Origin: an uncultured cyanobacterium | GTDB lineage: Bacteria > Cyanobacteriota > Cyanobacteriia > Cyanobacteriales > Cyanobacteriaceae | Direction: 5' to 3' | NCBI GenBank assembly: GCA_963749915.1 | Contig: CAVVOP010000022.1 | Location: forward strand, 512,001-576,000 | Length of the DNA: 64,000 nt | Shown here: piece by piece, positions 6,069-55,998 of the stretch | Layout of the letters: each line of letters begins with the position of its first letter | How positions within the stretch are numbered: the first letter of the stretch is position 1 | Notes under the pieces: model-generated | What the model saw: only the letters and a program-made list of their open reading frames with translations | Database searches by the model: none | What the model was told of the DNA's origin: nothing | Program-made: the position numbers and the translations under genes

Positions 6069-6659
6069 ATGAACATTCAAGTAGGACAAAAAGCACCAGA
6101 TTTCACAGCTACGGCAGTTATTGGGCAAGAGTTTAAAGTCGTTAAATTATCTGACTATTTGGGGCAATATGTGGTGTTATTCTTCTATCCCCTTGATTTT
6201 ACCTTTGTTTGCCCAACGGAAATTATCGCCTTTAGCGATCGCCACAGTGAATTTGAGAGTTTGAACAGCGAAATATTGGGGGTTTCCGTAGATAGCGAAT
6301 TTTCCCATTTAGCCTGGATTCAAACCGAGAGGAAACAAGGAGGTATCGGTGACATTGAATATCCCTTAATTTCCGATTTGAAAAAAGAAATTAGTACCGC
6401 TTACAACGTATTAGAACCTAATGCTGGTGTGGCATTAAGAGGTTTATTTATCATTGATCCCCAAGGGTTCATACAATATCTGACAGTGAATAACCTTTCT
6501 TTTGGGCGTAGTGTTGATGAAACATTAAGAATCTTAAAAGCTATTCAATATGTGCAATCCCACGATAACGAAGTGTGTCCTGTGGGTTGGCAAGAAGGAG
6601 ACAAAACCATGAATCCTGATCCCATCAAGTCTAAAGTTTACTTTTCCTCTCTCGGTTAA
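6069..6659 (+). CDS. 2-Cys peroxiredoxin (AhpC/TSA)
   Basis: [13 protein letters not shown] and EVCP motifs; ATG 6069 is the likely start. Confidence 0.95.
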
Positions 6660-6710
6660 CAAATATTAAGTGTAGAATGGTTAAAAAACCACAATTAATA
6701 ATTGAAGTTT

Positions 6711-7067
6711 ATGACACAAGCAACAGCAGTTTCTAAGGGTATACAGTTAACAGAAAATGCCCTTCACCACGTTTTAATGTTAAAACAACAACAGGGTAAT
6801 GAGGATCTGTGTTTACGGGTCGGCGTCAGACAGGGCGGTTGTTCTGGCATGTCTTATCTGATGGACTTTGAAAATATAAGTAACATCACTGAACATGATG
6901 ACGTTTTTGATTATGATGGTTTTAAAATAGTCTGCGATCGCAAAAGCTTATTATTTTTGTACGGCTTAGTCCTAGATTATAGTAACGCTATGATTGGTGG
7001 CGGTTTTCAATTCACCAATCCCAATGCCAATCAAACCTGCGGTTGTGGAAAATCTTTTGCTGCTTAA
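6711..7067 (+). CDS. iscA: A-type Fe-S cluster carrier (IscA/SufA)
   Basis: GGCSG and CGCGKSF motifs. Confidence 0.9.
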
Positions 7068-7189
7068 TTTTGGATTATTTGACAATTAACAATTAATGAC
7101 TAACTAATGAAACCTTGCACTCCCATTAAAAATTGCCTGGTTAGGGAAGGGAATAGAGAACAGTAGTAATAATTGAATTTTATATAAAG

Positions 7190-7459
7190 ATGGCTAAATA
7201 TATTTTATTCGGAAGTTATTGTGGGAATGCTCTAGAAAAAAGGAGTCCCTATCGTCAAGCACATTTAGACGGATTGGGAAAGCAAAAAGAATCAGGTATT
7301 TTAATAACCCTAGGTCCAACAAAAGATAATACTAAAGTATTTGGTATTTACGAGGCTGATAATGAAGAAACTGTCAAAAATATAATCGAATCTGATCCTT
7401 ATTGGCAAAACGGTATTTGGACTGATTATGAAATAAAAGAGTGGATTCAGGCTTTTTAA
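7190..7459 (+). CDS. YciI family protein
   Basis: R..HL, GPT and DPY motifs; 89 aa. Confidence 0.85.
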   Translation: MAKYILFGSYCGNALEKRSPYRQAHLDGLGKQKESGILITLGPTKDNTKVFGIYEADNEETVKNIIESDPYWQNGIWTDYEIKEWIQAF

Positions 7460-7618
7460 TTATCATAGGAGAATCCGTCATTATTAGTAAGTAATTATCA
7501 ATTAGTAAGTGATTATCAGGGAAAAATAAAGGTAAAAGAAAATACAATAATCAGCCTTTTTTTTCGTTAAATGATTAAAGAAGATTAATCAGATTCAGAT
7601 CTGCAAATTAGAAAAATT

Positions 7619-11870: not shown

Positions 11871-14280
11871 TTACACTGCCTTATTTTCAAAGCTTCCTTC
11901 ATAGTCTTTTCGGCTTAATACTGTATCAAACAATCCAATGTCTTCGCCTTCGTGTTTGTTTATTCCAATGTACTCTAAACTTGCGTCTTCGTAACGTTTG
12001 AATTTGTAAACGGCATCATTCATTAATGCAGAATTGAAAACGCCAAGACTAACAAGTAACTCAAAGTCTTTTACGGTTAAGCCTGTTACTTTTTTGAATA
12101 GACCTGGCTCTAATTGCGTGATTACGTCTTTCAGACTTCTTTCTCGATAGTCAGTCAGATACATAAACACAGGAACACGAGTTGCAAATTTGATTAGCTT
12201 GTCTTGTATTTTTTTTCTCAGGCTTTTGTATTCTTTCTCAGTATCGGTAAGCTCTTTCTTTTCTTGTTTTGTGAGCTTTTCATCATTTGCTTCTTTCTTT
12301 AGCTTTTTTAACAGCTTCCGATTTATTGATGATGGTTTCAATGTCCTGATTCAAGTTTCTGAAGCCTTCAATGCTCATTAAAGCTTTCATTGCTTCTTCA
12401 TTTGCCATCAATCGGGCAAGGGTGTTGTTGTCCACATTTACGAGCAATGCACTTTCCCAACGTCTTGCCAAAAGCGTGGCAGTTGTGCCACTCATTGCCA
12501 TATCTAAAATTCCCGCTGCATCCACTTGCTTCATTGAACTGCCGTCATAAGCCAACACAGGCAGGAAGTTGATAAACTCGGCAACTTTTGCTTCGGGGTT
12601 CGATTCGTTTACATTTAGTCGGCAACTGTAATCGGCAATTTGTCTTAATGCACGGTCGGGAGCAAAGTCAAAAACGTAACATTCTTCTTTTAAAATTTCT
12701 TCTTTGTTGGGCGATTTGCTGTCAGGGTTTTTAATGACCCAAGGCGTTTGCACTCGGAATGCTGCTTGAAAATAAGTTTCAGGACTGGAAGAATTACGCA
12801 ACATAAAAATACCTGTCCACGGTTTTACCGATACGCCTGTGGTGAGTTTACCACACGAGAGCGTAATGGTTTTTGATTCCAATGGATTGTCGGTCATGGC
12901 ATCTAAAACTGGTGGCAATGCTTCTATTCCAATTCCTGCTTGTGTTCCTGCTGCAACCACCACTTTGTAATCGTGGTAAAAAATATTTTGTCTTCTTTCA
13001 AGCAACAATGCTATTGCATTACACGCTGCAACGGTTGGCAAAAACCAAAAAGTGTGATTCAACACTTTGAGCAATGGAGCGTGTGAAAACGGCAAAGGCG
13101 GCTTTTTTGCTCCCATCTTTAAATGGTCAACGGTGGTTTCGCTAAACGAACCCCGAATTAAATCCAACCATTTTTGTACTTCGTCTTCGTATTTGAAATG
13201 TGCTTTTCGTCCTTCTCCTTCGGCTGAAAAGAATATGTTTAAATCAAAACCATCAAACTCGCCTTGCATTGCAATTTGGCGAATGGAATCGGGCAATTGA
13301 TAGGTGAGCATTACCATTCGTGGCAAGGCTGCATACGGATTTGAACCTTTTGATTTGTCCCAATTTTCTTTTTCTCTTTGCTCGTCTGAATATGTCCAAT
13401 TGAAAATTTGCTCTTCGATAAATTCACCCGAACTAATAGCACGAAATGGAGTGCCTGACAAATACAAATAGTGATTGGTGCTGATAGGGATTATCTTCTC
13501 TAAGTGTTCCGCTTTGTCTTCTTCGGCAATCCCTTCTTTTTCAATCTTTGTGTATTCTTCAATTTCCTTCTCGGCTTCTAAATCTTTACCGAATAAATCT
13601 TTGGCGTTTTCTCGCCAAGCACCAAAATGGTATTCGTCAAAAATGATACAATCCCACACGGTGGCGTGTACCCATTCGTTTTTGGTTTTGATACCGCCTG
13701 TGTTGGTGTTCTTGCCTAAAAAATCCTGAAACGAACCAAAGCAAACCAAAGGTTTTTTGGTGTCAATATCTTGGCTCGATAATTCATCCGCGTGTTTGGA
13801 AATGAATTGCCAACCTTTAAAGTCAACGTGAGAAACTAAATCTTCTTTCCAGGCATCTTCAACGGCTGGTTTGAAGGTTAGCACCAACACTTTTTTCCAA
13901 CCCATTTTTTTAGCCAATTGATAACTGGCAAAGGTTTTTCCGAAACGCATTTTGGCATTCCAAAGGAAATGGGGCGTTCTGTCTTTATTCTCTTTCTTGA
14001 AACTTTTGAAATAGGCAATGGTTTTTTCAACGGCTGCTTCCTGCTCGGGTCGCATGCCGAAGTTTAGCACTCGGTTTTCATCTGTTTTTTCGCCTGTTTT
14101 GATTTGGTGAATGGCTCTCCGCAAATCATTCAAGGTGCATTTATACCATTCGCCACTGGCGTTTACTACTTTCCATTCTCTTAAAAGACGGTGTACATCG
14201 TGGTCTGTAAATGAACTACCGTCACGCTTCATTGCCGATTCTTCAAATACAATTTTGTATGGAATGGCTGCCGTTCCTAA
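11871..14280 (-). pseudogene. Restriction-system DEAD/DEAH (ResIII-like) helicase subunit; 5'-interrupted and frameshifted near 12300
   Basis: AKMRFGKT, DEYH, LSGTP and YFQAAFRVQTP motifs. ORFs 12283..14232 and 11871..12341 join if one extra A is removed from GCTAAAGAAAG. The frame is open upstream to 14280 (LGTAAIPYKIVFEESAM). Confidence 0.8.
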
Positions 14281-14296
14281 TCAATTATGTTTATTC

Positions 14297-14325
14297 AATC
14301 GACATGAGCGCTTTTCATGTCGATT
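14297..14325. repeat. Perfect 11-bp inverted repeat downstream of fic
   Basis: AATCGACATGA-N7-TCATGTCGATT; TCGACATGA recurs at 14339. Confidence 0.75.
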
Positions 14326-14387
14326 AGTTTGATTATTTTCGACATGACAGCCACTTCGTCTTTATCAAGTGTACATGACTACGCTTC

Positions 14388-15485
14388 CTATTCAGATAGT
14401 ATTCTAAGCAGTTTATGGTTGATATAATAGGTCTCCTTCCAAACCTGCACGCTCGCAAGCCATCCCGCTTTTTCTATTTCTTTCAAATAGCGCGATGCTG
14501 TTTGTCGTTTGGCAATTCCATTTTCCTCCAGAATCCCAATTTTTATGTAAGGATAGCTGAACAGCAAATCGTTCAACTCTCTGGAGAAAGAAGCCCCCAA
14601 CACAACTTTAAGATCATTTTCGGCATTTGCCTTCAGTTCTAAAATGCGCTTGACCTTATGCAGTGTAGTTTGAGAGGTTTTAGCAACACCATTTACTACA
14701 TACAGCACCCATTCATTCCAGTTGTTTTGCTCTGTTACTTCGCGCAATAGGCGATAGTAGTCTGACTTGTTTTCGATGATGTATTTACTCAAATACAACA
14801 CCGGTAAACCAATCATGTCTTGCTGTATCAAATACAGAATGTTAAGAATACGCCCCGTTCGCCCATTTCCATCACTAAACGGGTGAATGGCCTCAAATTG
14901 ATAATGAATCAGAGCCATTTTAATCAATGGATCTAATTGGCTACTATCAGGTTCATTAATGAACTTCTCTAATTCGAAAAGCTTTTGCCTGATCAACTCT
15001 TCGCCCTCTGGCGGAGTATAAACCACTTGTGCTGTTACAGGATTAGACAATTTAGTGCCCGTATTTCGCCTGACCCCCTCATTGCTGTTACGCAGTTTTT
15101 GCATAATGCCTACCAAAAGATTGGTAGTGATGATGCCTTTCCTCTTTAATTCTTCCAAACCAAAATACATGGCCTCGCGGTATTGCAACACCTCTCTGGC
15201 AGCCTGATTTTTCACCTTATCGCCCATCAAGGTGGCCTTGTATAGCTCATCTTGGGTCGTAACTATGTTTTCAATAGCGCTCGATTCCTTACTTTCCTGC
15301 AACACAATGGTATTGAGCAAAAGCTCAGGATTAGGCAAGGTTTGACAAAATCCCTTCAACTCTGCCAATAGCCTGTTTGCGCGAATGCAAGCCTTGAAAA
15401 TTTCAGGGGTTTCCAGATTAGCAGCAGGGGGTAAATCCGGCAGGGCATTGAAGGGCATGTCGCGGTTGAATACTGTTCTACTCAT
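14388..15485 (-). CDS. Fic family protein (Fic/DOC N-terminal domain, AMPylase)
   Basis: HPFSDGNGRTGR catalytic motif and SSAIEN inhibitory helix. Confidence 0.93.
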   Translation of the reverse strand: MSRTVFNRDMPFNALPDLPPAANLETPEIFKACIRANRLLAELKGFCQTLPNPELLLNTIVLQESKESSAIENIVTTQDELYKATLMGDKVKNQAAREVLQYREAMYFGLEELKRKGIITTNLLVGIMQKLRNSNEGVRRNTGTKLSNPVTAQVVYTPPEGEELIRQKLFELEKFINEPDSSQLDPLIKMALIHYQFEAIHPFSDGNGRTGRILNILYLIQQDMIGLPVLYLSKYIIENKSDYYRLLREVTEQNNWNEWVLYVVNGVAKTSQTTLHKVKRILELKANAENDLKVVLGASFSRELNDLLFSYPYIKIGILEENGIAKRQTASRYLKEIEKAGWLASVQVWKETYYINHKLLRILSE

Positions 15486-41517: not shown

Positions 41518-41900
41518 CATGCTCCCGACTTTGATGCTTACGCATACAGAGCGGGCTTCTCATCGACTCCAGCTATTGCTTCGGACGTTAGATGAGCTTT
41601 AAGAACGGAATGCCCTACCGCTGTGTATTTGATGTTTCTGGCTGCGTTGTGGTCACGGTCAAGAGAACATCCGCAATTTGAGCAGGAATGCCATCGGTCG
41701 GAAAGCTCTTTCTTGACCTTGTAACCACAATTCGAGCAGTCTTGAGAAGTACCCTTTGGATTCACCGCAATCGTAAGCAATCCGGCTCTTTCAGCCTTGA
41801 TTGAGAGAATTGAGAGGAATTGACCCCAGCCAGCATCATGGGTTGATTTTGCGAGTCTTGTTCTCGCAAACCTTTTGATATTTAACTTTTCATGTGCAAT
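41514..41900 (-). mobile_element. tnpB: IS200/IS605-family remnant: tnpB 3' part plus right end
   Basis: HEKLNIK...DAGWGQF...TSQDCSNCG...[17 protein letters not shown]; the element ends ...GCATGTCAC at 41514. Confidence 0.88.
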
Positions 41901-41929: not shown

Positions 41930-44900
41930 TTAAGTTTGAGTTTCTTGACTCATTCTACGATTTTTCAAACACTCTCTCTTAGTTAAACTTAATAATCGAT
42001 CGAATAAAGGCTCACCGATCGTCATTAACTTCAATGAAGGGTATTCATCAAAAATATCGGGATAAAAAGTAACACGGTAACTTTTATGATCAAAATGTAA
42101 CAACCAGGTATTATTTTCTTGAGGTTTAAATCCAATTCCTTTGCTTTTTAGCAGGCGTGAATTAGTAACTATTTCTTCTACTTGTTTACCAGAGATAGGA
42201 CTAGGAGGAATTGATTCATTGATTAGTTGTAAATCTGCATCAACATTCATCGCCATCATCTGTCCTAAATCTGAACGAATGGAGGGATTATTCAATAAAT
42301 CTTCTAATTCACTTAATAACACACCCTCTTCCTCTGGATCTGCCGACATTACAGCTTGTTCAATGAAAGTAGGAACTTGAGCTAATATGGGCTGTAAATT
42401 GCCTACAACTGTTTCAAAAGCATTAATTCTGCTTCTTAACTTTTGATAGACTTTTGCCTCTACCGTGCCATCGTAATAAAAGTTGTGGATACGAATAGTT
42501 GCATGAATTTGTCCGATTCTATCTAAACGTCCTATTTGTTGCTCAATTTGCATCGGATTCCAAGGACAAGAATATTGAAATAAGACACCACAAGTTTGCA
42601 GGTTTAGCCCCTCACTAGCAGACTTAGTACATAATAAAATCTTGATGATACCTTCACGAAATAATTTTTTTATTTCTTCTTTTTTGACAGTTCTCCAATA
42701 ACCATCTTGATACAACTCTCCTCCTCTTCCTGAGTAACAAGCTATCTGAGAACCATATAACTGGACAAGTGTATCTCTAACATAATCCATTGTATCTGTG
42801 TATTGAAAGAAGGTAATTACTGTTTCTCGATTAATCAATTCCTGTCTTAAAAGGGTTAAATAGTGTGAAAGTTTGGTATCTTCTCCTGTTTGTTCGCATT
42901 GTCTTAAAATGTTTTCTAAATACTCTATTTCAGCAGGATCTGTTGGTTGAAAATAGGACTCTAATCCTTGAATGATATTATCATCAGCATCATCTAAGTC
43001 GATTAAGTCATCATCAGTAATGCTGATACCGTCTAAACGACGTTCTAAAGATTTTTTAATGGCATAAAATGAACTCGTTAAACGGCGGCGATACAATGTC
43101 ATTAAAAAGCCTAGTCCCTTTCTATTTTCTTGTTGGGCTAAGTTGTAAAAATGACGCACATAATCACTTACAGCTTGGTATAAGGGAATTTCTCGTTGTG
43201 GTTCAAGGACGATCGCATTATCAAAAACAATTCTATCTGGTATTGGTTTATCTAAAATGCCTCGGCGGTGATATTCCCTTAAAGTATCTCTGGTATGACG
43301 AAACATTAAATCTTTGAGAGGGGTATTCACAGTTAAAAATTGTCGGGAAGCATCGATAAAACTTTTATCTTGAGATAGTCGTTTGGAGTTAGCGATCGCT
43401 TTTCCTTTTTCCCATGTATCTTTAAGAGAATAGAGTAATAAACGGTTATTGTTTCTCAAATATTGCTCTAGTAAAGGACAAGACTTACCTCCTTGTTGAA
43501 AGTAATCTACGGCTAGAGATTGCCAAAATTCAAGTTTTTGAGGGTTAGCTGGTTGCGGTAAACTATCAAAATAGTCACAAAAGTTATCTTGATATTGCCA
43601 CAATCCTTTTAAACCAACCAGATGCAGTAAGTCAAAAATTTCTACCGCATCCATTTGCATAGGGGTAGCGGTTAATAGTAACAAGGATTTGGTTTTATCT
43701 TTCAACTTCCTGAGTAAACTCAGTAAGCGATTGGGGTTATCTTCCCTTTGTTGAGGGTTACGACGACGGGCATGATGTGCTTCATCTACTACTACTAAAT
43801 CCCAATCATTAGCCTCTAATAATTCGTTAGCACGCTCTTGCATTCGCACAAGGTGGGAAGAAGCTAAGATTAAATCGACTTCATTCCAAGGGTTAGAAAT
43901 AGGTGTAATAGTTTCTCCGTCAGGATTGGTAAAAATTCCTTTACTGTAACTCCAAAAATGAAGGTTAAATTTTTCTCTTAATTCTTCATGCCATTGAGGT
44001 TGTACACTAGCAGGTGCAAGGATTAAGACTCGTTTTGCTTGACGGGAAACTAATAAATATCTGGTGATAATACCAGTACTAATAGTTTTACCTAAGCCTA
44101 CTTCATCACTGATCAAAGCAGAGGTAGGAAACTTGCCAGTGAATTGTCTTAAGATTTTGGTTTGATGTATCCAAGGTTTGATGGGTATTGATTCTAAACT
44201 GTAAGCAAAACAGCCTTGATGTTGATGAATATTAAGTAAAGGCTCAAATAATTTTAACTCTCTTTCAATTTCTGTTGGGGTTAATTCAATCTTTTTAGCT
44301 TGATTTTTTTCTATTTCGTCATCATTCCCAATCCTATCATTTGATTCATCTCTACTAACTGTACTCTGTTCACTGTTATCTGTACTCTGCTCACTGTTCA
44401 CTACCAAATCATCTTCTTTTTTCCAGATGGGTTTAGTAGAGGGAGTATAACGCAGTAATTTTTTTTTAATGGCTTCAGGAATCTCAAAAACTCTGACATT
44501 TTCTGCTAAATTATTCCATAATTTATCAAATCTAAATTGCTCTTCATTAACTCTTTGTAAATCTCTTTCTCCTTCCCAAGCACAATAAACGTGAAATGAT
44601 TCTACATTTGTTTCCCAGCCTCCTATTGATTCATTATTGGAGCCACTAAAAGCAATTTTATTTCCTTCTCTATCTGTAAAAATACCCGTTTTTTCATGAA
44701 ATAATTTATGTTTATTTAATTGTTCTGGTAAGCCATTTTTTTGTAGAGGAATCGCAATTTTTATATCTAAAAAATGATGGGCTATTAACCAACTTAAAAT
44801 TTGAAAATGTTTAACCCCCGCAAAATTTTCTGGCTCTTTTAATTCTCTATTTAAACGGTACTCTAATTTCTCTTTTAATTCATAGCCAAGAGCGATCGCT

Positions 44901-45130
44901 TTCAAGTCATGATGACTAAATTCACAACCCATAATTAAACGCATTTTGCCCTCATTATAGAGCATTGCACCTAATCCTTGAGCTACTTTAGATAAAATGG
45001 CACTATTGAAAAAACCTGATTTACGATCATATGCCACTGCACTTTCAAGGGCGGGAATATAAAAGTCAGCAATGGGGTTATTTTCATTACTTGAGTAACT
45101 AATTAACCAATCTTTTTCTGTTAACAACAT
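41930..45130 (-). CDS. PLD-nuclease / SNF2 helicase fusion of a DUF499-DUF1156 restriction-like system
   Basis: FHEKTG...SGSNNES (PLD), [34 protein letters not shown]. Confidence 0.9.
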
Positions 45131-45180
45131 TACAGATTACAGTGAACAGATTACAGTGAACAGATTACAGTGAGCAGTGA
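45131..45180. repeat. CAGTGAA-type heptamer array directly before the SNF2 start
   Basis: TACAGATTACAGTGAACAGATTACAGTGAACAGATTACAGTGAGCAGTGA. Confidence 0.9.
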
Positions 45181-45187
45181 AAAAATA

Positions 45188-45541
45188 TTATTTTTTGTTT
45201 TTGCTTGTCTTAATACTAGATATTAAAATTTTTAGGATTTCTTTCAAATCGAAAATAATTGAATTATAACCTTTTTCTCCAATATAGTTTGATTGATATA
45301 GTAATTCCAACCAATATTCAGATTCATTGGCTTCTTTTAAGGCGATAGATAACTTATGGATGAAATCGGCTTTGCTTTCGGCATACTCTGATTCCCTTAC
45401 CAAAGCACCAATAGAAGTACCACTTCTTAGAAGTTGTTTTGATAAAACATATTCTTTCTTTTCCTCTGTCAAATACTGATAAAGTTTAATAATTCTCAAA
45501 GCAAAAGCAAAAGACTTATTTTTCAAAAATGGTTCACTCAT
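45188..45541 (-). CDS. Four helix bundle protein (TIGR02436-like)
   Basis: KSFAFALRI, QLLRSGTSIGALVRE, SKADFIHKLSIALKEANESEYWL. Confidence 0.92.
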   Translation of the reverse strand: MSEPFLKNKSFAFALRIIKLYQYLTEEKKEYVLSKQLLRSGTSIGALVRESEYAESKADFIHKLSIALKEANESEYWLELLYQSNYIGEKGYNSIIFDLKEILKILISSIKTSKNKK

Positions 45542-45572
45542 CAAGAATTACTTTTAACACTTATAATAAACT

Positions 45573-45604
45573 ATTGTTCACTGTACTCTGCTATCTGTTC
45601 ACTG
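45573..45604. repeat. Heptamer array in the opposite orientation (TGTTCAC)
   Basis: ATTGTTCACTGTACTCTGCTATCTGTTCACTG. Confidence 0.85.
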
Positions 45605-45608
45605 AAAA

Positions 45609-46037
45609 GTGCAAGAATTTCAACTTAAGATAATTCCTTTAAAAGATAATAATTTTTTCTTAGAATTATATCAATGTGCTTACAAAAAAGCGGGACAAAA
45701 AAAACGCCCTTCGGCTCAATGTATGGGGAAAGTAAAAGGAAACAAGTTAGTTTTAATTAGACAGGCTATTTATCAAGTATTGAAAAGTAATAAATATAAT
45801 CCTCAAACTCTTTCTTATAAACGAAAATCTCCTTATATTTTAAATGAAGAATCAGGGACAAATTTAGCAATTTTATTTCAGACAATACAACCACTTAGAA
45901 AAGAAGACAAAATTGTTAATATTCGTGATGCAGTCATGGCAATGAGTAATGAAGAAGCTCATTATTGGTTTGCTAAAATTAATCACGGGAAACGTAATTC
46001 TGCTCTGAAGGCTTTAAGGATTTTACTGGGAGAATAA
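45609..46037 (+). CDS. Small basic hypothetical protein; probable DUF3780-analogue subunit of the restriction-like system
   Basis: 142 aa, GTG start, EESG..LA.LF...MS.EEA.YW..K pattern; context between DUF499/DUF1156/SNF2. Confidence 0.6.
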   Translation: MQEFQLKIIPLKDNNFFLELYQCAYKKAGQKKRPSAQCMGKVKGNKLVLIRQAIYQVLKSNKYNPQTLSYKRKSPYILNEESGTNLAILFQTIQPLRKEDKIVNIRDAVMAMSNEEAHYWFAKINHGKRNSALKALRILLGE

Positions 46038-46102
46038 ACAATAAATAATTAATATTAAAGGCTATAGTTAAACTATAAGATCAATTATCTTTACTGTAAA
46101 TT

Positions 46103-46336
46103 ATGATGAGCGAATTAATCACTGTAACTTATGATGGGGTAGTATTAACCCCAAAAACAGCATTAGATTTGGAGACAAATAAAGAATATCACATTCAAAT
46201 AATTTCTGATTCTAATCAATCCTCAATCATCGATGAGTTAAAGACTTCTGCTGATTTATACGCTGAAATTTATCAACAAGATTTAGAGTTACAACAGTTA
46301 ACCGATGTTGCTTGTGAGGATTTTATTGAAGAATGA
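46103..46336 (+). CDS. Putative antitoxin (AF2212/DUF104-like N-terminus)
   Basis: ITVTYDGVVLTP; overlaps the toxin start (ATGA). Confidence 0.7.
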   Translation: MMSELITVTYDGVVLTPKTALDLETNKEYHIQIISDSNQSSIIDELKTSADLYAEIYQQDLELQQLTDVACEDFIEE

Positions 46337-46685
46337 TTTTGACAAGAGGAATGATTATTAATGTCAATCTTAATCCCACTTTAGGTTCAGAAACAGGAAA
46401 AATTAGACCATGTATTATAGTAACAAATAATATTTATAATCAACGAGTACCAGTTATTCAAGTTGTACCTATAACTAATTGGACTGAAAAAAAGCAAGAA
46501 TTAAAACCAATATTGAAATCAATCCTACTGTTACTAATAATTTAGATAAAAAATCTATTGCTGATTGTTTACAAACTCGTCCTATTGATTATAATTCTCG
46601 TTTTGTTAGTTTCAGAGGAGAATTAGAAAATGATCTTATCCAACAAATAGATACCGCCCTGAAAATAGTTTTTGCTTTAAATTAA
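46333..46685 (+). pseudogene. PemK/MazF toxin frameshifted in a poly-A tract
   Basis: LNPTLGSETGKIRPCIIV. Adding one A to the A7 run near 46490 restores KKARIKTN...IADCLQTRPID...ALKIVFALN*. Confidence 0.8.
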
Positions 46686-46767
46686 TATTAATTCGATACA
46701 TTTATTTGAGAACGATCACTTTATAAACTCTAATTGAAGGTGGATTAGTAACAATTAAACATTTGTG

Positions 46768-46806
46768 ATTTTAACTCTTAAGAAGCTCAAAAACCGATCG
46801 CACTTT
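46768..46806 (+). repeat. Direct repeat, left of TA module 2
   Basis: ATTTTAACTCTTAAGAAGCTCAAAAACCGATCGCACTTT. Confidence 0.8.
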
Positions 46807-46848
46807 ATCCTATGATAGAAATACCCATTGTTTATTGTTTATTGAACT

Positions 46849-47064
46849 ATGTCTCAAATAATAACTGTTACCTATGACGGGGAAGTATTAAAACCTAGTC
46901 AAAAACTATTCTTAGATATAGGAAAAAAATATCAAATTGAATTGATAGACGATAATAACATACATTCTTTACCTGAAAATCAACCCCGAACAAATATACG
47001 CTCCCATGAATCATTTTTAAATGGATATGCTCCCGAAGATGAAGGATTATATGATGATTATTAA
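46849..47064 (+). CDS. Putative antitoxin (AF2212/DUF104-like N-terminus)
   Basis: ITVTYDGEVLKP, C-terminal FLNGYAPEDEGLYDDY; overlaps the toxin. Confidence 0.7.
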   Translation: MSQIITVTYDGEVLKPSQKLFLDIGKKYQIELIDDNNIHSLPENQPRTNIRSHESFLNGYAPEDEGLYDDY

Positions 47065-47380
47065 AGCAGGGGATTTTTGGGTAGCTAAAATAACTTTTAC
47101 TGATGGTATCAATTTTAAAAAACGTCCTGTGTTAATTCTTTGGTGTGACGGTGATGATGTTATTGTCGCTGTAGTAACATCCGCTCAACCTAGAACACAA
47201 ACTGATGTAGTTTTAAAAGACTGGCAAAAAAGTGGCTTAAAATTAGCCTCTACTGTACGTTTGTCTAGATTAGATTCTTTAGAAAAATCGTTATTGATAG
47301 CCAAAATTGGTCATCTCACTACTGATGATGCTCAAAATCTTCTCAATACTTGGAATAAATACATTAAACCTCAATTTTAA
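47051..47380 (+). CDS. PemK/MazF family toxin
   Basis: GDFWV..I.FTDG..FKKRPVLIL, SGLK..STVR. Confidence 0.85.
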   Translation: MMIIKAGDFWVAKITFTDGINFKKRPVLILWCDGDDVIVAVVTSAQPRTQTDVVLKDWQKSGLKLASTVRLSRLDSLEKSLLIAKIGHLTTDDAQNLLNTWNKYIKPQF

Positions 47381-47411
47381 CTCTTAACAAGCGCAAAAAA
47401 CGATCGCCTTT
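47374..47411 (+). repeat. Direct repeat, right of TA module 2
   Basis: ATTTTAACTCTTAACAAGCGCAAAAAACGATCGCCTTT. Confidence 0.8.
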
Positions 47412-47530
47412 CATTCTCAGCATATAATAATCAATCACCATTAATCTTAGTTCGCAGAACGTAAAACTATTAGCCTTGTAATTCATTACAAGGTGGGAAA
47501 ACTAAACACAACCCATAACTAATACCCATC

Positions 47531-50500
47531 ATGAGAAAACAATTATTCATCGAAAAAATTATGCCTGTAAAATTCCTCAATGAGCAGGTATATTATGAAC
47601 ATGGCGGTAATCCTTTCAAAGGTTTACATCGCTGGTATTCTCGTAAACCTTTATCTTTTTCCCGTGCTTCGGTGTTGGCTTCCCTTCTACCTGCCGATAT
47701 TACCATGGAAGAGTTTTTATATGTGATGGGTTTATATGGTGAAGATGATGTCAGGTTTTGGGAAAGTAGTAATAAATCTGAGGAAGAAAAGGATAAACTG
47801 CGGAATAATAAGCAGGTTAGGTTATATAAATGTCCTCCTAGTAATAAGCAAATTCAAAGGTTTGAAGAACTTTGTGAGCGGGTTTGGGGTACGAAAAAAC
47901 CGTCAATTTTAGATGCTTTTGCTGGCGGTGGCAGTATTCCTTTTGAGGGTGTGCGTTATGGTTTAAATGTTTTTGCTTCCGATTTAAACCCCGTGGCGGT
48001 AATTACCATGAAGGCGGCGATGGAATATCCATTAAAGTTTGGGGCAGATTTACAAACTGATATTGATAGATGGGTTAAATATGTGGGAGATGAGGCGGAA
48101 AAAAGGTTAGCTGAGTTTTTTCCTAATTCAGATCCTCCCCAGCCCCCCTTAACAAAGGGGGGAGAAGAAAAAGTCCCCCTTAGTAAGGGGGATTTAGGGG
48201 GATCAAATCAGAGTAGTACGATCCCTTCTAGCCCATCTTCAAATACTTCCACCGCCGATTTAGGGGAATCAAATCAGGAGAGTGAGATCCCCCCCAACCC
48301 CCCTTTGAAAGGGGGGAGTAAGGTTAAAAATGCTTCAAAAGAGGGGAATACGGAAACGGTGCAAAATTATCTTTGGGCGCATACTGTTACTTGCCCTCAT
48401 TGTCATTCTACTATTCCTCTTTCTCCTAATTGGTGGATCGATCGCTCTCCTTCTGCAATCAAAAATCATCGTATTTGTGCGGTTAAACCTATCCCTAATC
48501 TTGAAGAAAAACGGGTTGATTTTGAGTTAATAAAAGGCAAAAAAGGTAAAGGGACAACTATTACAGTTAACAGTGAACAGTTAACAGTGAACAATAGGGA
48601 GAGTGTAAATAACAGTCAACAGGTTATAGATTTTGATCCAAGTGATTACAATACCATCGGGCGAGGTGTAGGAAAATGTTGTAATTGTGGCAATGTGATT
48701 GAAGATGATGTTATTAAAAATCAAGCGCAAAACGGTAGGTTTAGGACATCAATTATATGCAATAGCTTTTAAGAAAGGAAAGGGAAGTTTAGAATTTAGA
48801 ATCCCTAATCAAATTGATTTAGAAGGTGTTAAAAAAGCAGAAGAATTTTTACAAGCTAAATCAGAAGAATATTAACGTTAATCAATTAATACCCTGAAAA
48901 CTACTTATAGTCATTGATGGTGAAAGAAGTACAGATGATTACAGAATATGGTATTGAAAAATGGCATAAATTATTTAACCCACGTCAATTATTAACCCTT
49001 GTTACTTATGTAGAAATAATTAACGAAGCCAAGGCAAAAATACAAGCAGAATATGAACCAGAAAAAGCCGAAGCAATTGTAACTTATTTGGCTTTGGTTT
49101 GCGATCGATGTGTTGATAGAAATTGTCGATTAGGCAGTATGGGATCCTTCAAGAACATAATGCACAAGGTAGCATCAGCACAACACGCATTAAATTTAAT
49201 GTGGAATTATCCTGAAACTAATGGAAGTAGATAGATTATGGAATGGTGTGCTGATACAGTTGCAGACGATTTTACGAAACTTTGCGAATATGTAAACCAG
49301 CAAAAAAAATCAAATCAACTAAATCTTTTAACAGAAAATTTCACTGATAAAACTATTAAAATTAACCTCGAATCTGCCGATAGTTTGTATCATATTCCTG
49401 ATAAAAGCATCGAAGCAATCATTACAGACCCACCTTATTACGGTACAATTCAATATGCCGAATTAGCCGACTTTTTTTATGTCTGGCAAAAGCGCACATT
49501 AGGAGATATATTTCCCGATATTTTCTGGCAAGAGTTAACGGATAAAGATAGAGAAGCCGTTGCCAACCCTTCCCGTTTCCGCAACATGGGAGTATCCGCT
49601 GATGAGTTAGCCAAACAAGACTACGAAGCAAAAATGGCGATGGCATGGAATGAAGCCTATCGGGTTTTAAGAGACGATGGGGTATTAACAGTACAATTTA
49701 ACCATAAAGAATCAGGGGCATGGGATGTATTAGCAAAAGCCTTAATTGATGCAGGTTTTGAAATTACCGCTAGTTGGGCAGTTTCCACCGAAAACCCCCA
49801 AAATCTCCATCAAGCAAAGAAAAACAGCGTATCTAGCACCGTTATTTTAGTATGTAGAAAACGTCAACAAGTCCCCCTTACTAAGGGGGATTTAGGGGGA
49901 TCAAGTCAAGGGAATGAGATCCCCCCTAGCCCCCCTTCAAAAGGGGGGAATAATAGCTTTCAGGGTGCGTGGTGGGATGACTTACGCCCCGAAGTCGCTA
50001 ATCAAGTAGAAGCAAGGGCAAGTTACTTCGAGGATAATGATATAACGGGCATTGACTTATATTTAAGTGCCTTTGGAGTCGCCTTAAACGTCTTTTCCAA
50101 GTCTTACCCCATCCTCGACAATACAGGTAACGAAGTGCGCCCAGAAGTTGCCTTTGCCGAAGCCAGAAAAGCGATCGCCAGTTATCGTTTCCGTAAACTA
50201 TTACAAACCGATACCGCAGGATTTGATGCCTTAACCCAATGGTATTTACTAGCTTGGGATGCTTTTTCTGCCCGTGAATTTCCTTTTGATGAAGCGAGAC
50301 AGTTAGCCTTAGCCATTGGTGGATTTAACGTTAATGACTTAACTAAGGAATATAAACTAATTGATTCAGCTAGTGGCACTTGTAAATTTTTAACTCCCCA
50401 ACAACGGCTGAAAAAACGAGCTTTTACCGTTAATCCTCAAGAATTTACCATTAAATACTTAATTGATGGTTTACACGCCTTAATAGCGGTTTATGAAGAT

Positions 50501-50698
50501 GAAGGCAACCTCGAAGCAGTACGCCAATTTATGAAGAAAACGGGGTTGAATAGTAATGATTTACTAACCAAGACGATCGAAGTTGCGTTTAAAGTGATTC
50601 CCGATAATGTCAAGGAGAAACAGACGTTAGTTAATTTGTGGTTGGGAATTGATGAGATTAAAACGAAGGTTGTTTATTTGCAGGGAGAGGTTTTTTAA
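47531..50698 (+). pseudogene. DUF1156 adenine DNA methyltransferase, split by clustered indels at ~48740-49240 (possibly sequencing errors)
   Basis: LHRWYSRKPL, DAFAGGGSIP (motif I), CPHC/CCNC zinc ribbon and TDPPY (motif IV). The three ORFs plus an intermediate frame (LGHQLYAIAFKKGKGSLEFR) form one gene. Confidence 0.85.
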
Positions 50699-50737
50699 GT
50701 AAGAAGTAAGAAGTAAGAAGTAAGAAGTAAGAAGTAA
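50696..50737. repeat. (TAAGAAG)n heptamer tandem repeat
   Basis: Directly visible after the methylase stop. Confidence 0.9.
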
Positions 50738-50756
50738 AAAGTTTAGTTTATGAAAA

Positions 50757-52145
50757 ATGATGAAGATAAAAGTAAGAAATTTAGGCACATTAAAACAAGC
50801 TGAATTCAATTTAGGTGAATTAACAATTATATGTGGTGGTAATAATACAGGAAAAACCTATGCTACTTATGCTCTATTTGGTTTTTTATCTATTTGGAGA
50901 CAAACCATAGAAATTGAGATTAAACAAACTCAAATTAATCAGCTTTTTCAGGAAGGAGTTATTAGTATTAACTTAGAAAAATACTTAAATAATGCAGAAA
51001 ATATTCTTAGGAAAGGATGTAAAAAATATACGAATATTCTGCCTAAAATTTTTGCCTCGTCCCCTGAAAACTTCAAAAATACAGAGTTTTTTATTGATAT
51101 AAATATATCAGATAATAAGCTCAATCAAAATCATGAAGAAATTATAGGATCAACTAACAAAAAGATATTTTCTTTAGTTAAATCAGAAAATAGTAATGAA
51201 TTAATTGTTACTTTACTCACGGAGGAAGAAAATCGAAAAATTCCCGATAATGTAATTAGAGAAATTATAGGTTCAGCCATAAAAAATATTATTTTTAAAC
51301 AGTTTTTTCCCAATTGTTTTATTGCTAGTGCTGAAAGAACAGGAAGTGCTATCTTTCGTAAAGAATTAAATTTTTCTCGTAATCGTTTGTTAGAAGAAAT
51401 TAGTCAAACTGATAAAAATATTGACCCCATTGAACTTTTACTTAAAGGTTATGATGATTATGCTTTACCAATTAAAGAAAATGTTGAATTTATTAGAAAT
51501 TTAGAGACTATTGCTAAAAAAACCAGTTTTGTAGCGGAAGAAAGTCCAGATTTATTGGAAAATTTTGCTGATATTATTGGTGGACAATATACTGTTACTA
51601 AAAATGATGAACTTTATTATATTCCTAAAGGAAAAAGAATCAAGTTATCAATGGATGAAAGTTCTAGTGCTGTACGTTCACTATTAGATATTGGTTTTTA
51701 TCTCAAACACATAGCAAAAAAAGGAGATTTATTAATTATTGATGAACCCGAATTAAACTTACATCCTGAAAATCAGAGAAGAATGGCTAGACTTTTCGCT
51801 AGATTAATTAATTTAGGGATCAAAGTATTTATCACTACTCATAGTGATTATATTATTAAAGAATTAAATACTTTAATTATGCTTAATCAAGATAAAACCT
51901 ACCTCAAAGAAATTGCTCAAAGAGAAGGTTATCAAGAAGATGAATTATTAACTGTGGAACAAATTAAAGTTTATATAGCAGAAGAAGCATTAATAAAATT
52001 AGATAATCGTCAGAGAAAAAGTCGTTGTCAAACTTTAACGCTAGCTAATATTACTCAAGATTTAGGCATTGAAATTAGTAGTTTTGATACTGCTATAGAA
52101 ACAATGAATCGTATTCAAGAAGAAATCATCTGGGGAGAAGAATAA
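50757..52145 (+). CDS. ABC-type (AAA_15/AAA_21) ATPase
   Basis: GGNNTGKT Walker A, SSSAV signature-like motif, LIIDEPELNLHP, TTHS. Confidence 0.88.
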   Translation: MMKIKVRNLGTLKQAEFNLGELTIICGGNNTGKTYATYALFGFLSIWRQTIEIEIKQTQINQLFQEGVISINLEKYLNNAENILRKGCKKYTNILPKIFASSPENFKNTEFFIDINISDNKLNQNHEEIIGSTNKKIFSLVKSENSNELIVTLLTEEENRKIPDNVIREIIGSAIKNIIFKQFFPNCFIASAERTGSAIFRKELNFSRNRLLEEISQTDKNIDPIELLLKGYDDYALPIKENVEFIRNLETIAKKTSFVAEESPDLLENFADIIGGQYTVTKNDELYYIPKGKRIKLSMDESSSAVRSLLDIGFYLKHIAKKGDLLIIDEPELNLHPENQRRMARLFARLINLGIKVFITTHSDYIIKELNTLIMLNQDKTYLKEIAQREGYQEDELLTVEQIKVYIAEEALIKLDNRQRKSRCQTLTLANITQDLGIEISSFDTAIETMNRIQEEIIWGEE

Positions 52146-52147
52146 GG

Positions 52148-52711
52148 GTGTATAGTTCTAATGATATAACTATTCTTGATCAGATAATTAAAGATAATGC
52201 CAAAGTACCTTTAATCGATAATTATGGTAAAAAACAAGTAAATTTAACTGAAACTCATGGAACAGATTATTCTGTAACTATAAGAGGAATTCCTGATGAT
52301 ACTTTAATCATAAAAATAGATCTATTTGAAGCTCCTAAAAGTTTATTTCAAGGAATAAAAGGGGAATGTAAACGTTGTGATTATGTAATTATTTCTGATT
52401 CTCCGATAAAAAAGATGATTGTATTAATTGAAATGAAAGCAGGTAAAGCCTTAGAGAAAGAAGTTATTCAGCAATTAAAAGGAGGTAAATGTTTAGTGAA
52501 ATACTGTCAACAAATAGGACAAGAGTTTTGGCGGGAAATAGACTTTTTGAATAATTATGATTATCGTTTTATTAGTTTAAAAAATATTAGTATATCTAAA
52601 AAATCTACTAGGAACAAGAAACAAGCACAATTACATGACTCTCCTGAAAATATGTTAAAAATTTACTCCCCAAAAGGATTACAATTTAATCAATTAATTG
52701 GTCAACCATAA
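52148..52711 (+). CDS. Hypothetical protein, putative PD-(D/E)xK nuclease
   Basis: CDYVII...LIEMK pattern; starts 2 nt after the ATPase stop. Confidence 0.55.
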   Translation: MYSSNDITILDQIIKDNAKVPLIDNYGKKQVNLTETHGTDYSVTIRGIPDDTLIIKIDLFEAPKSLFQGIKGECKRCDYVIISDSPIKKMIVLIEMKAGKALEKEVIQQLKGGKCLVKYCQQIGQEFWREIDFLNNYDYRFISLKNISISKKSTRNKKQAQLHDSPENMLKIYSPKGLQFNQLIGQP

Positions 52712-52754
52712 TCTATTAAAATATTTATTATTTACTACCGATTTCAATTTCTTC

Positions 52755-52786
52755 ATTGTTCACTATAGTCTGTTCACTGTTCATTG
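52755..52786. repeat. Heptamer array (TGTTCAC orientation) overlapping the DUF499 stop
   Basis: ATTGTTCACTATAGTCTGTTCACTGTTCATTG. Confidence 0.85.
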
Positions 52787-55700
52787 ACAGAGGCTTTCAA
52801 ATTAAGTCGCTCTACAGGATTACGTTTTAAAGCATCAAAAATCATATTAATTTCTGTGCCGTCAGGAGTAACAGGTGATGTAAAGTCGATCGTCAAACTA
52901 AGAGAAAGATTAGCTTGAGCAGAAGGAGAATTAAGCAAACTATTTAAAGTATTAAAAAAGCTCTGAAATCCTCTGGTATCACCCTGATATTCTAAACGAA
53001 TAAACTGCTCTTGTGCTTGAATAGTAACAGTTTGGTCAATCAATATTGACCATAATTGAGGACGATTTAATAAAGATAAACTGGTGCCTAACTTGCGGTA
53101 ATCCATCACTGAATCAACAGTAATAATCAAGGAAGAAAGAGCAGTAATTTTATAGTCTGAACATTGATCTTTTAGGTAAGTAAAAGTGGCGTTTACAGTA
53201 CCTTCTTTGACAATTTCTGATGGTTTTAACTGAAAAATATCAGGTTCAGGATTAACAATATATCCCCCAGAAGGCTCTTTTACTCCTATGGTTGCTAAAC
53301 TAACCGTGGTTTCTTGAATAGCTGTTTCCCCACTACCATAGTCAGCTACGACTTTAAATATCGTTAACTTCTCAATTGCAGTGGTATATTCATCACTAGG
53401 GCGAAAATCATCCTTGATTAAACTATTATCCTGATAAAGACTAACCATCAAAGCACCTTTCGCTTTCCATCGCACCCTCACCTCTTTTGTTTCTTGATTA
53501 ATTACTTGAGCCGAAAGCTGAATTACTTTTGGTTCGGGGGGTTTTAATATACCTCGACGATAAAGAGTGTAATTGTCGGAAAATTCGATAATCTCAGGTA
53601 AATTAGATAAACCTGTATCAGTTTTGATATACATTTTCTCACCTAGCTGCATATCCCAAACCCCTTCAGTTAAGCCTTGACGAATAGTATCCCGTAATAA
53701 AGATATCTCTGCATCTAGTAAAAACTTCAAACTTAAATCCTTGGCAAAGGTTTCTTTCAGTGCCATAGTGCTGATAGAATCTAAACCTTTTGCCCATACC
53801 TTCTGCATAATATAAGCAGGTGCATAAGCTTTTAAAGGCTCATCGGAACGTACTTTTTGACAATCCTTAAGGGCTTTGAGTATGACATCTTGTTGGTTAT
53901 TTTTCCCCTTAACAGTGCTAGAATCTTGAGCTGGTAAAACGTAATGCTTTAAACCATCGGGAGCTTTGACTGGGTCATTGTCAGGATAGAATAAATGACG
54001 ATAGGCATTAGTTAAAGCAATTCGTACCTCTAAATCCTTCGCCCCATACCTTTGTTTTAACTGTTTTTGTTGACTTTCTGATAAGTCTTCTAAACGAGTT
54101 TGAGAATTAAGAATATTGTGGATAGCCTTATATTCTCTAGTAATATCGATCGCTCTGTCTATTTCCGCTTTATTTGCCAATAAAAATAGTAAACGATTAC
54201 GATAGATCCTAAATCGTCCCGATTCACCTGTATTATTAAATATTTGAGTAATGAAACTGGGAGCAGTATCAGTGGCATTAGTAATAATGGCTTCATCAAA
54301 ATCGAGCACGCACAAGGCGATTTCATCTGCCCGATCATCTACATCAGAAGAACTATCAGGGGCAGAAATTAAAGTAAATAACTTTTTAGCAAAAATACTG
54401 TCTCGACGGGTGCGTAATTCTTCTTTGGCTTCACTACGTCCGATTTGTTCTTTTTCTTCACTAATAATTTTATTAATTGATGGCTCTTCCTTAAACCGAG
54501 CAATATTGCTAATCGGATCTACATCTAAATACCAGGCTACTGCTTGTAAATTATTCAAGGCTCGATCGACAAAATTAGCATCTAACCCTGGTGTTAATAA
54601 AGATAAATTTAATTCCCCTAAGCGAATTCCCGCACTAATACCATAATTGAGAGAATGGAGGAAAATAGTTCTCCCAATATAGGAAGAAAAAGGGGGTTTG
54701 CCTGCTGTTAACCATTCTTCATCTTGTTGTTGAGCGTAAGCGAGTCTGCCACTGGGATTATAAATATCGGCATTAACCGCAGGACGCATGGTTCCTCTCT
54801 GTATTCTTGAGGTTAAATCATCGGTAATATTTTTTTCTAAGCCCACTGGTAAATGATGGGTATGAATCAAAGGAATATATTCAGGGGGATTTTGCCACAG
54901 ATAACGCACTAATTGAGCCAGTAATCTTAAGGCACCCCTGGTCTTCTGAAATTCAGGAATAGCAGCTATTTTCTTGGTTAAGAGGTTAAATAACTCAGGA
55001 TGAAAAGGATAACTTTGAGCGATCGCTTCTCCATAGGTAGCATCTTTGCAACTATCAGGTAAGTTGAGATGATTGGTTTTATAAGTTTGCAAATAAGTTT
55101 TAGCGATAGTGTCAGCGGTATCAACGTTAACCGAATCAAACAAACGCTGTTTGACTATATTGTAAATTTCGACATCAGTACTAGGAGTTAAGACTCTTTC
55201 TTGACGGGCAGAAGCACTAATTAACTCTTTTAATTCATTGGTATCCTCCGCAAAAGTATCACTACTAGAAGCCAAAGAATAGACTAAAACTAAATTATTA
55301 GTAGCAGAAGCTAAATCCATCAGGGAGAAAAGAAAATTAACCACCTGTTTAGCTAAATTACTATCTTGTATTGCTTTCCCTTTGGCAGTACTAAGATAAC
55401 GGGCAATTTCATCCAACATAATCACCGTGGGTCGATTATTCACTAAACGTTCAATCACAGAAGTACCGGGACTGACTCCAGAGCGATCGCTTTTTTGTAA
55501 AAGTTGATAACCTTCTATGTGTCCTATTTGATAAGCAATCTCTCCCCATAAGGTATAAGTCGTGATACCGGTATCTTGATGATAAATGCCATTCTCAGGA
55601 TCTAAATCTCTCCCATCAATAGCTGCCACTTGAATGGTATCGGCAGGGATAATCTCTAAATCAGTAAAACGTTCTAAAGCCTGAATCTTTCTGCCCTGTT

Positions 55701-55998
55701 TAGCAATATGCCAAATAGCGATTTGGTCATGGGTTTTACCGCCACCAAAACTAGTTTCTAATCTTAAAATGGGAGAACCGCTACCCTTGCCGCTGAGACG
55801 AGTAAATACCTCTCCGATTAAAGTTTTTATACCATCGGTGGGAAATGTATTAGCAAAAAATAAATCAGGGTTTTGATATACTTGTGGAGCTTTTCCTTCT
55901 ACTACTAAACGCAATTTAGCGGCAAAAAGATCTAACTGTAAATCGCCTGATAATATTTCACCTCTGGGAGTACAACTATCTAAAACAGAAGGGAGCAT
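52774..55998 (-). CDS. DUF499 AAA+ ATPase
   Basis: FFANTFPT, LETSFGGGKTH, MLDEI, SYPFHP, FQKTRGALRL. Confidence 0.9.
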   Translation of the reverse strand: MLPSVLDSCTPRGEILSGDLQLDLFAAKLRLVVEGKAPQVYQNPDLFFANTFPTDGIKTLIGEVFTRLSGKGSGSPILRLETSFGGGKTHDQIAIWHIAKQGRKIQALERFTDLEIIPADTIQVAAIDGRDLDPENGIYHQDTGITTYTLWGEIAYQIGHIEGYQLLQKSDRSGVSPGTSVIERLVNNRPTVIMLDEIARYLSTAKGKAIQDSNLAKQVVNFLFSLMDLASATNNLVLVYSLASSSDTFAEDTNELKELISASARQERVLTPSTDVEIYNIVKQRLFDSVNVDTADTIAKTYLQTYKTNHLNLPDSCKDATYGEAIAQSYPFHPELFNLLTKKIAAIPEFQKTRGALRLLAQLVRYLWQNPPEYIPLIHTHHLPVGLEKNITDDLTSRIQRGTMRPAVNADIYNPSGRLAYAQQQDEEWLTAGKPPFSSYIGRTIFLHSLNYGISAGIRLGELNLSLLTPGLDANFVDRALNNLQAVAWYLDVDPISNIARFKEEPSINKIISEEKEQIGRSEAKEELRTRRDSIFAKKLFTLISAPDSSSDVDDRADEIALCVLDFDEAIITNATDTAPSFITQIFNNTGESGRFRIYRNRLLFLLANKAEIDRAIDITREYKAIHNILNSQTRLEDLSESQQKQLKQRYGAKDLEVRIALTNAYRHLFYPDNDPVKAPDGLKHYVLPAQDSSTVKGKNNQQDVILKALKDCQKVRSDEPLKAYAPAYIMQKVWAKGLDSISTMALKETFAKDLSLKFLLDAEISLLRDTIRQGLTEGVWDMQLGEKMYIKTDTGLSNLPEIIEFSDNYTLYRRGILKPPEPKVIQLSAQVINQETKEVRVRWKAKGALMVSLYQDNSLIKDDFRPSDEYTTAIEKLTIFKVVADYGSGETAIQETTVSLATIGVKEPSGGYIVNPEPDIFQLKPSEIVKEGTVNATFTYLKDQCSDYKITALSSLIITVDSVMDYRKLGTSLSLLNRPQLWSILIDQTVTIQAQEQFIRLEYQGDTRGFQSFFNTLNSLLNSPSAQANLSLSLTIDFTSPVTPDGTEINMIFDALKRNPVERLNLKASVNEQ

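Follow-up and report, generated by a model that had tools for sequence, protein, structure and literature searches.

A MANTIS-like defence locus of Cyanobacteriaceae with a probably inherited inversion of its middle block and heptamer arrays at its gene edges

The defence system formerly called Gao_RL now goes by the name MANTIS, and restriction by it needs all four of its proteins (bioRxiv 10.64898/2026.09.23.753747). It is also listed as Gao_29 and as type-2 BR (the DUF499-centred, BREX-related systems), a group defined by DUF499, an N6-methylase, an HKD-SNF2 protein and DUF3780 (PMC12839542). Here, we describe a locus at positions 41930 to 55998 of a 64,000-nucleotide stretch (the window; contig CAVVOP010000022.1, positions 512,001 to 576,000, assembly GCA_963749915.1) from an uncultured member of the Cyanobacteriaceae, which by its gene families is assigned to this group as a MANTIS-like variant. 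The reading that we favour, and hold to be probable, is that the middle block of this restriction-modification-type defence system was inverted once in the ancestor of a clade and has been inherited in that state since, and that the heptamer arrays at its junctions are gene-edge repeats and likely no switch sites.

A sequence-only reading of this DNA had named Gao_RL as the system, and the families bear this out: DUF499, the DUF1156 methylase and PLD-SNF2, three of the four MANTIS families, are present in the window with their catalytic motifs. The DUF499 AAA+ ATPase (MtsA-like, 1074 amino acids; 52774..55998, minus strand) was found by family scans, is intact with Walker A GGGKT and Walker B LDEI, and matches PF04465 with an E-value of 3e-31 and NF042962 with 220 bits (cut-off 1200). 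The PLD(HKD)-SNF2 helicase-nuclease (MtsD-like, 1066 amino acids; 41930..45130, minus strand) is likewise intact, with matches to Pfam SNF2/Helicase_C, to PADLOC PLD_Helicase (E 5e-75) and, under the cut-off, to NCBIfam NF042964, and with the motifs HEK..D, GSxN (as GSNN), GLGKT and DEAH; the core proteins in general score well under the NCBIfam equivalog cut-offs. The DUF1156 adenine methylase (MtsC-like; 47531..50698, plus strand), also found by family scans, lies in three open reading frames (ORFs; 47531-48772, 48914-49234 and 49238-50698) with FAGGGS in the first and DPPY in the third, that is, instead of one intact N6-adenine methylase with FxGxG and DPPY, we see these motifs in separate ORFs.

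With MANTIS, as far as it is described, the locus shares a DUF499 AAA+ ATPase, a small partner gene, a DUF1156 adenine methylase with FxGxG and DPPY, an N-terminal PLD/HKD nuclease fused to an SNF2 helicase, and an ancestral gene order A-B-C-D. It differs in its small gene, a DUF7680 without detectable profile similarity to DUF3780, in the inversion of its middle block and the insertion of toxin–antitoxin (TA) pairs, an ABC-ATPase/nuclease pair and a four-helix-bundle cassette, and in a methylase that is in pieces in this assembly. Judged from sequence, three features keep the locus out of MANTIS in the strict sense: its small subunit, its split operon and, as assembled here, its methylase. 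By analogy, the locus is predicted to work like MANTIS: in intact copies, self DNA would be marked by ATP-dependent adenine hemimethylation and unmarked DNA would be cut by the PLD-SNF2 protein. In MANTIS, the hemimethylated site is asymmetric and 6 bp long, and phages or plasmids are restricted. There is also a likeness to Hma (type-1 BR), in that the best PADLOC matches of the ATPase and methylase pieces include HmaC and HmaB. Type-1 BR systems have three genes and a helicase with an N-terminal TUDOR and a C-terminal REase domain, whereas the helicase here has an N-terminal PLD nuclease and is accompanied by a small fourth gene, both of them type-2 features (PMC12839542); the PLD motifs and the fourth gene rule Hma out.

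The small subunit at the MtsB position (45609..46037, plus strand; 142 amino acids) is a DUF7680 protein (Pfam PF24728). The sequence-only reading, whose Gao_RL set includes DUF3780, overlooked this: Pfam gives DUF7680 only, with no profile match to DUF3780, and an hhalign comparison of 24 DUF7680 with 9 DUF3780 sequences returned a probability of 0.6% (E 0.099). An AlphaFold2 model of the protein (pLDDT 93) has four strands and five to six helices, and the DUF3780 fold is described as a four-stranded sheet backed by five helices (PMC12839542); by these secondary-structure counts, the model appears to resemble the published description. A sequence search of the PDB with the DUF7680 alignment gave a single weak match (E 0.019). 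Elsewhere in the same genome there is a partial DUF3780 match (L101, G000:C10:3512-3841), perhaps the remnant of a canonical type-2 BR system.

In the window, DUF499 and PLD-SNF2 lie on the minus strand and the block between them (45609-52711) on the plus strand; ORF map and family scans agree with the strands and coordinates first reported. The four genes stand in three blocks here, and in one co-directional operon in the sister-group locus L112 and in 36 loci outside the family. We searched 20 genomes of the family, of which 6, from three genera, have a DUF7680 match; in all six, SNF2 is divergent from DUF7680, as it is in the metagenome loci L102, L103, L104 and L106 (L103 and L104 repeat the L002 type). 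Outside the family, 52 loci were counted once duplicates (five), fragment matches (four) and loci lacking DUF7680 (five) had been removed, and in every one DUF499 stands directly before DUF7680 on the same strand. All four genes are in order in 36 of these loci and only the first two or three in 13; the others are one locus without a methylase match, one with an extra upstream SNF2 fragment, and L013 with SNF2 and methylase flipped.

The six inverted family loci form one clade with support of 1.0 (FastTree, 54 loci) and, since kin are not independent, they count as one event. On the sister-group plasmid AP025633.1 (L112), the order is DUF499 > DUF7680 > methylase > ABC-ATPase > nuclease > SNF2 on one strand, the ABC-ATPase/nuclease pair likewise standing before SNF2. 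This matches exactly the ancestral order that had been proposed from the window (DUF499 > small subunit > DUF1156 > ATPase > nuclease > SNF2), and such an order in the sister locus means that the inversion did happen. We infer a single inversion with breakpoints at DUF499 stop/small-gene start and at nuclease stop/SNF2 start, after which the locus would have been read as three transcription units.

The inverted layout is clade-wide and appears to be old. When the window is compared with three inverted relatives, the ratio of nonsynonymous to synonymous substitution rates (dN/dS) is 0.06-0.18 for DUF499, SNF2, DUF7680 and the C-terminal piece of the methylase, at dS of 0.7-2.5; it is 0.23-0.37 for the middle piece of the methylase (about 90 codons, in a variable region), and dS is saturated for the first piece. 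The methylase is a single ORF of 967-1093 amino acids in the inverted loci L003, L002 and L021. Low dN/dS at such distances, together with intact methylases in inverted relatives, is compatible with long maintenance of the inverted state under purifying selection.

Five heptamer arrays had been reported in the locus, two of them in frame in SNF2 and DUF1156, and all are present. Array A (45129..45180, plus) is the downstream arm of the four-helix-bundle cassette and runs into the SNF2 start codon; array B (45571..45605, minus) is the upstream arm of that cassette and ends 3 nt before the DUF7680 start; array C (52753..52787, minus) supplies the last codons and the stop of DUF499 and lies 43 nt from the nuclease stop. 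Array D (48560..48597, plus) is in frame in the methylase linker, and array E (44349..44404, minus) is in frame in the SNF2 linker, at codons about 242-260. A sixth array of a different unit, AAGTAAG (50697..50742, plus), is found where the methylase ends, between two co-directional genes. A and C are inverted with respect to each other and agree over 24 nt at 92%, with perfect inverted identity over just 12 bp. The 11-mer ACAGTGAACAG has five of its nine genome copies in this 9-kb locus, and the 10-mer CAGAGTACAG all three; the five arrays are a locally clustered family, not a product of chance.

The sequence-only reading had suggested that these arrays form a live, recombinase-free switch, in which recombination between A and C toggles the split and the co-directional state and recombination between B and C excises the methylase block. 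The array geometry is as it described, and the co-directional state does exist in nature, outside the clade. Arrays as working inversion sites are nonetheless not supported, and we consider a live switch very improbable. In all ten clade loci that show both the SNF2 start and DUF7680 (window, L001, L002, L003, L021, L026, L102, L103, L104 and L106), the two are divergent. Inverted loci have kept their genes intact, which means that inversion does not turn the system off, and the assembly has a single copy of each junction flank. Furthermore, three of the divergent homologues have no junction arrays, an outcome that the sequence-only reading had itself named as speaking against its idea. The closest relative, L102 (95% amino acid identity in DUF7680 and the SNF2 start, 93-96% at the nucleotide level), has a DUF433-type TA pair at its junction and an array at neither start; L106 has a junction of about 45 nt without an array; and no heptamer array was found in the 19.9 kb of L021. 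In this last locus (reverse, ~6400-7500), DUF7680 and the methylase are separated by several tandem copies of a ~190-bp repeat.

Where relatives do have arrays at sites matching the window's junctions, the unit differs (window, L003 and L001), so inverted sites are not conserved among carriers. The same holds for the in-frame arrays: several relatives (L003, L002 and L106) have them at the same SNF2 and methylase linkers, with a unit that differs per genome, and L003 has several tandem copies, the site being kept and the sequence replaced. Arrays and cassettes would seem to be gained and lost, and to exchange their units, at a quicker pace than the genes. Recombinase-driven invertible loci such as fim, hin and the hsdS shufflons resemble this locus in that inverted repeats bracket an inverted segment. 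They differ from it in that here no recombinase is linked, the repeats are not conserved among relatives, and the clade members seen have a single orientation. That no recombinase gene is visible had been noted from the start, and we found no site-specific recombinase among the window ORFs; the nearest Pfam resolvase-like match is weak and ~85 kb away, and for tyrosine recombinases there is no match on the window's contig, PF00239 and PF00589 matches being found elsewhere.

Contigs from sequencing runs (X numbers) bear on the junctions too; those of runs X1, X2 and X12 discussed here are single low-depth contigs from one study. X1 and X12 contigs agree with the 5' end of SNF2 over 228 nt (0-1 differences) and go on without array A, and array B is missing from an X12 contig that extends to the DUF7680 start. 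An X1 contig leads out of the nuclease gene and across array C, identical throughout, and ends 7 nt past it, which is too short for a bridge. No opposite-strand joint at the arrays was seen among the listed matches in contigs of seven runs (X1-X6 and X12), whose cover is patchy, and we do not count this as evidence. An X2 contig (45507-45723, one difference) runs from the four-helix-bundle gene across array B into DUF7680. This last contig also speaks against the inversion being a misassembly at repeats; small lesions in the region do resemble sequencing faults, but independent assemblies share the layout, which refutes this explanation and leaves it with practically no probability.

Arrays of this kind are common in the genome, with at least 580 in 4.69 Mb by Tandem Repeats Finder (contig C8 has 120, against 1 in its shuffle); this number is a lower bound, as the program misses B and C. 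Using simple ORF calls (3731), we found arrays on 281 of 2340 co-directional (12.0%), 77 of 612 convergent (12.6%) and 74 of 601 divergent (12.3%) junctions. With so nearly equal a share on all orientations, strand switches are not favoured. Among 572 oriented arrays, the purine strand is sense at stops in 125 cases versus 35, and the pyrimidine strand is sense at starts in 70 versus 27, while 293 of the 572 belong to neither the start nor the stop class and are not within an ORF. Arrays A, B and C obey this polarity, and arrays are found at gene starts and stops in co-directional copies of the locus too. Neighbouring arrays share a unit more often than under shuffled labels over shorter distances (21 of 48 versus 6.5, and 40 of 182 versus 24.4) and hardly so beyond 5 kb (38 of 259 versus 34.7). 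Unit sharing out to ~5 kb is thus seen across the genome, of which the cluster at this locus is one case, and probably reflects local copying.

Comparable repeats in cyanobacteria are presumably those called STRR. The same start/stop polarity has been described for heptamers in Xanthomonas and Nostoc, which have in common with the present arrays 7-nt units, few copies per array, the sense strand at stops and the antisense strand before starts, and inverted pairs (PMC4692102). Unlike those repeats, as far as they are described there, the unit here is CAGTGAA-like and not G-quadruplex forming, many units coexist, and arrays of the same unit cluster within ~5 kb.

Arrays A and B are the arms of a gene cassette. 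The four-helix-bundle gene between them (45188..45544, minus strand; 118 amino acids; TIGR02436 / 23S_rRNA_IVP / PF05635 by family scans) has a dN/dS of 0.11-0.20 against two relatives, and in an RNA fold of 45125-45612 (minus), A pairs with B (z = -2.9; none of 100 shuffles was as good). The genome has 37 TIGR02436 matches, and most full-length copies have such array arms (by eye, on 30 merged matches). The co-directional loci L050, L032 and L110 have an array-flanked four-helix-bundle gene of their own between DUF499 and DUF7680. An in-place flip was considered for the opposite-facing gene of L001 and dropped, its dS of 0.67 versus 0.22 for the flanks making it three times more diverged; on these distances, it looks like a separate insertion. 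The intervening sequence of Coxiella 23S rRNA offers a parallel, with a four-helix-bundle (S23p/IVP) gene between inverted, heptamer-bearing arms able to pair (PMC4990558), although the cassette here lies between protein genes and not in rRNA, and its RNA pairing is predicted only.

A related element is found elsewhere in this genome (G000), in 12 copies on 8 contigs (e.g., L114, C21:70463-71018), none in the window. The element is non-autonomous and 555 bp long, has terminal inverted repeats and target duplications of 9-10 bp, and carries nothing but a four-helix-bundle gene with heptamer arrays, inverted to each other, on its two sides. The motif at its ends also delimits a 1.5-kb element that encodes an IS4-family transposase (L113). 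This element is a route by which four-helix-bundle cassettes can multiply.

The methylase lesions of the window copy comprise several single-base indels and a stop within ~500 bp (~48730-49240), in the variable middle region. Broken methylases are rare among relatives (1 of 40 that are full-span; that of L026 is decayed too, but is not full-span), and in the assembly at large, 2 of 128 orthologue-like genes have a frame change or stop. No near-identical run contig over the lesions was found among the Logan contigs, with their patchy cover. Should the lesions be real, we would expect an inactive copy, with the system silent and the host unharmed, since an mtsC knockout is non-toxic in MANTIS (10.64898/2026.09.23.753747). 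Two other observations concern the gene. At 48868-48946, the contigs of X3 and X5 share both flanks and differ across the stretch, which fits a variable target-recognition region; and a GC-rich palindromic repeat family lies in frame at 48130-48321 and 49866-49953, encoding PPxPPLxKGG-type peptides and recruiting many unrelated metagenome contigs.

Some points weigh against the reading that we favour, or parts of it. The methylase lesions, single-base indels within ~500 bp, may be a local sequencing fault, given that the neighbouring lesion in MazF is a homopolymer difference that the contigs of four runs do not show. The run evidence comes from Logan contigs, which cover the region patchily and drop rare forms, such as a minority orientation. 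Five of the six family loci have arrays at one or more of the breakpoint gene ends, and ancestral arrays are possible as breakpoints, since the breakpoint intervals now hold arrays, of which A and C are inverted and similar. Finally, the clade contains a second rearrangement, in which the methylase alone is flipped with respect to other members (L002 5282-8563, also L103 and L104), and its homology blocks end beside arrays. Shared sequence beside the L002 and L003 arrays was considered as a breakpoint trace and dropped, as it belongs to the end of an element that G000 has in 11 copies.

Rare recombination between inverted stop and start arrays could account for both the ancestral inversion and the L002 methylase flip, as fixed events and not as a switch. 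Because arrays face opposite ways at stops and starts, any stop array and start array are automatically inverted. Such an array-seeded historical inversion is compatible with the inherited inversion that we favour, and is an addition to it; we regard it as possible and rather doubtful. It would explain why the breakpoint intervals coincide with array positions and why the L002 blocks end where they do, and the co-directional L112 already has a start-type array before SNF2, though none at the DUF499 stop. The six family loci have two inversions against one (L013) in the 52 outside loci, where arrays at core-gene ends occur in only 5; L013 itself is a rearranged locus in which we found no array. 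The intergenic sequence has turned over, and repeats of other families are present in it, which keeps the breakpoints from being assigned to arrays; the cassette that faces the other way in L001, being more diverged than its flanks, offers no in-place flip in support. The identity usually quoted for efficient RecA recombination is roughly 25 bp, and the perfect identity of A and C falls short of it. Stability is moreover reported as increased near heptamer repeats (PMC4692102). Among the papers that our searches listed, we found none on heptamer-driven inversion of a defence locus, and the supplements of papers may list this clade.

For the remaining genes of the middle block, the earlier gene list can be amended. 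It overlooked the four-helix-bundle gene, the division of the methylase into three ORFs and the frameshift in the first MazF-like toxin. This toxin (MazF/PemK-like), with an antitoxin-like ORF, occupies 46103..46686 (plus strand, family scan), and its frame is broken in a poly-A run near 46486, where contigs of runs X1, X2, X5 and X12 have an extra base. A second TA pair, with an AF2212-like antitoxin and a PemK-like toxin (46849..47380, plus strand, family scan), is found in L026 and L102 too. The ABC-type ATPase (462 amino acids) and small putative nuclease (187 amino acids; 50757..52711, plus strand) had been counted as part of the system; both genes are present, and PADLOC (PDC-M47A 780 bits, PDC-M47B 256 bits) points instead to a separate PDC-M47 / PD-T4-4-like module.

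A promoter scan of 44900-46200 returned 13 weak sites versus 6.2 expected, which is uninformative in DNA so AT-rich. Directly beyond the SNF2 stop lies a TnpB-like zinc-ribbon remnant (41538-41780), and farther off in the window, at 12283-15485, a Fic gene and a gene for a type III restriction res-like helicase stand side by side as another small defence-like pair.

Overall, the defence system is of a known kind, its inverted arrangement is fixed and specific to a clade, and its repeats are common ones; the significance of the locus is modest. It indicates that division into divergent units need not prevent a MANTIS-type system from being kept by purifying selection, and that DUF7680 fills the place of MtsB in one branch of the cyanobacteria. 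We also recommend caution: inverted heptamer arrays arise at any stop/start pair in array-rich cyanobacteria, so an array at an inversion junction is by itself no evidence of a switch. A tentative extension, which we would not bet on, is that arrays give the genes of such genomes inverted ends, and that rare recombination shuffles defence operons gene by gene with frames unbroken, the clade-wide inversion and the L002 methylase flip being two such events. If arrays did seed these inversions, repeats that are so far unexplained would have a part in rearranging genomes.

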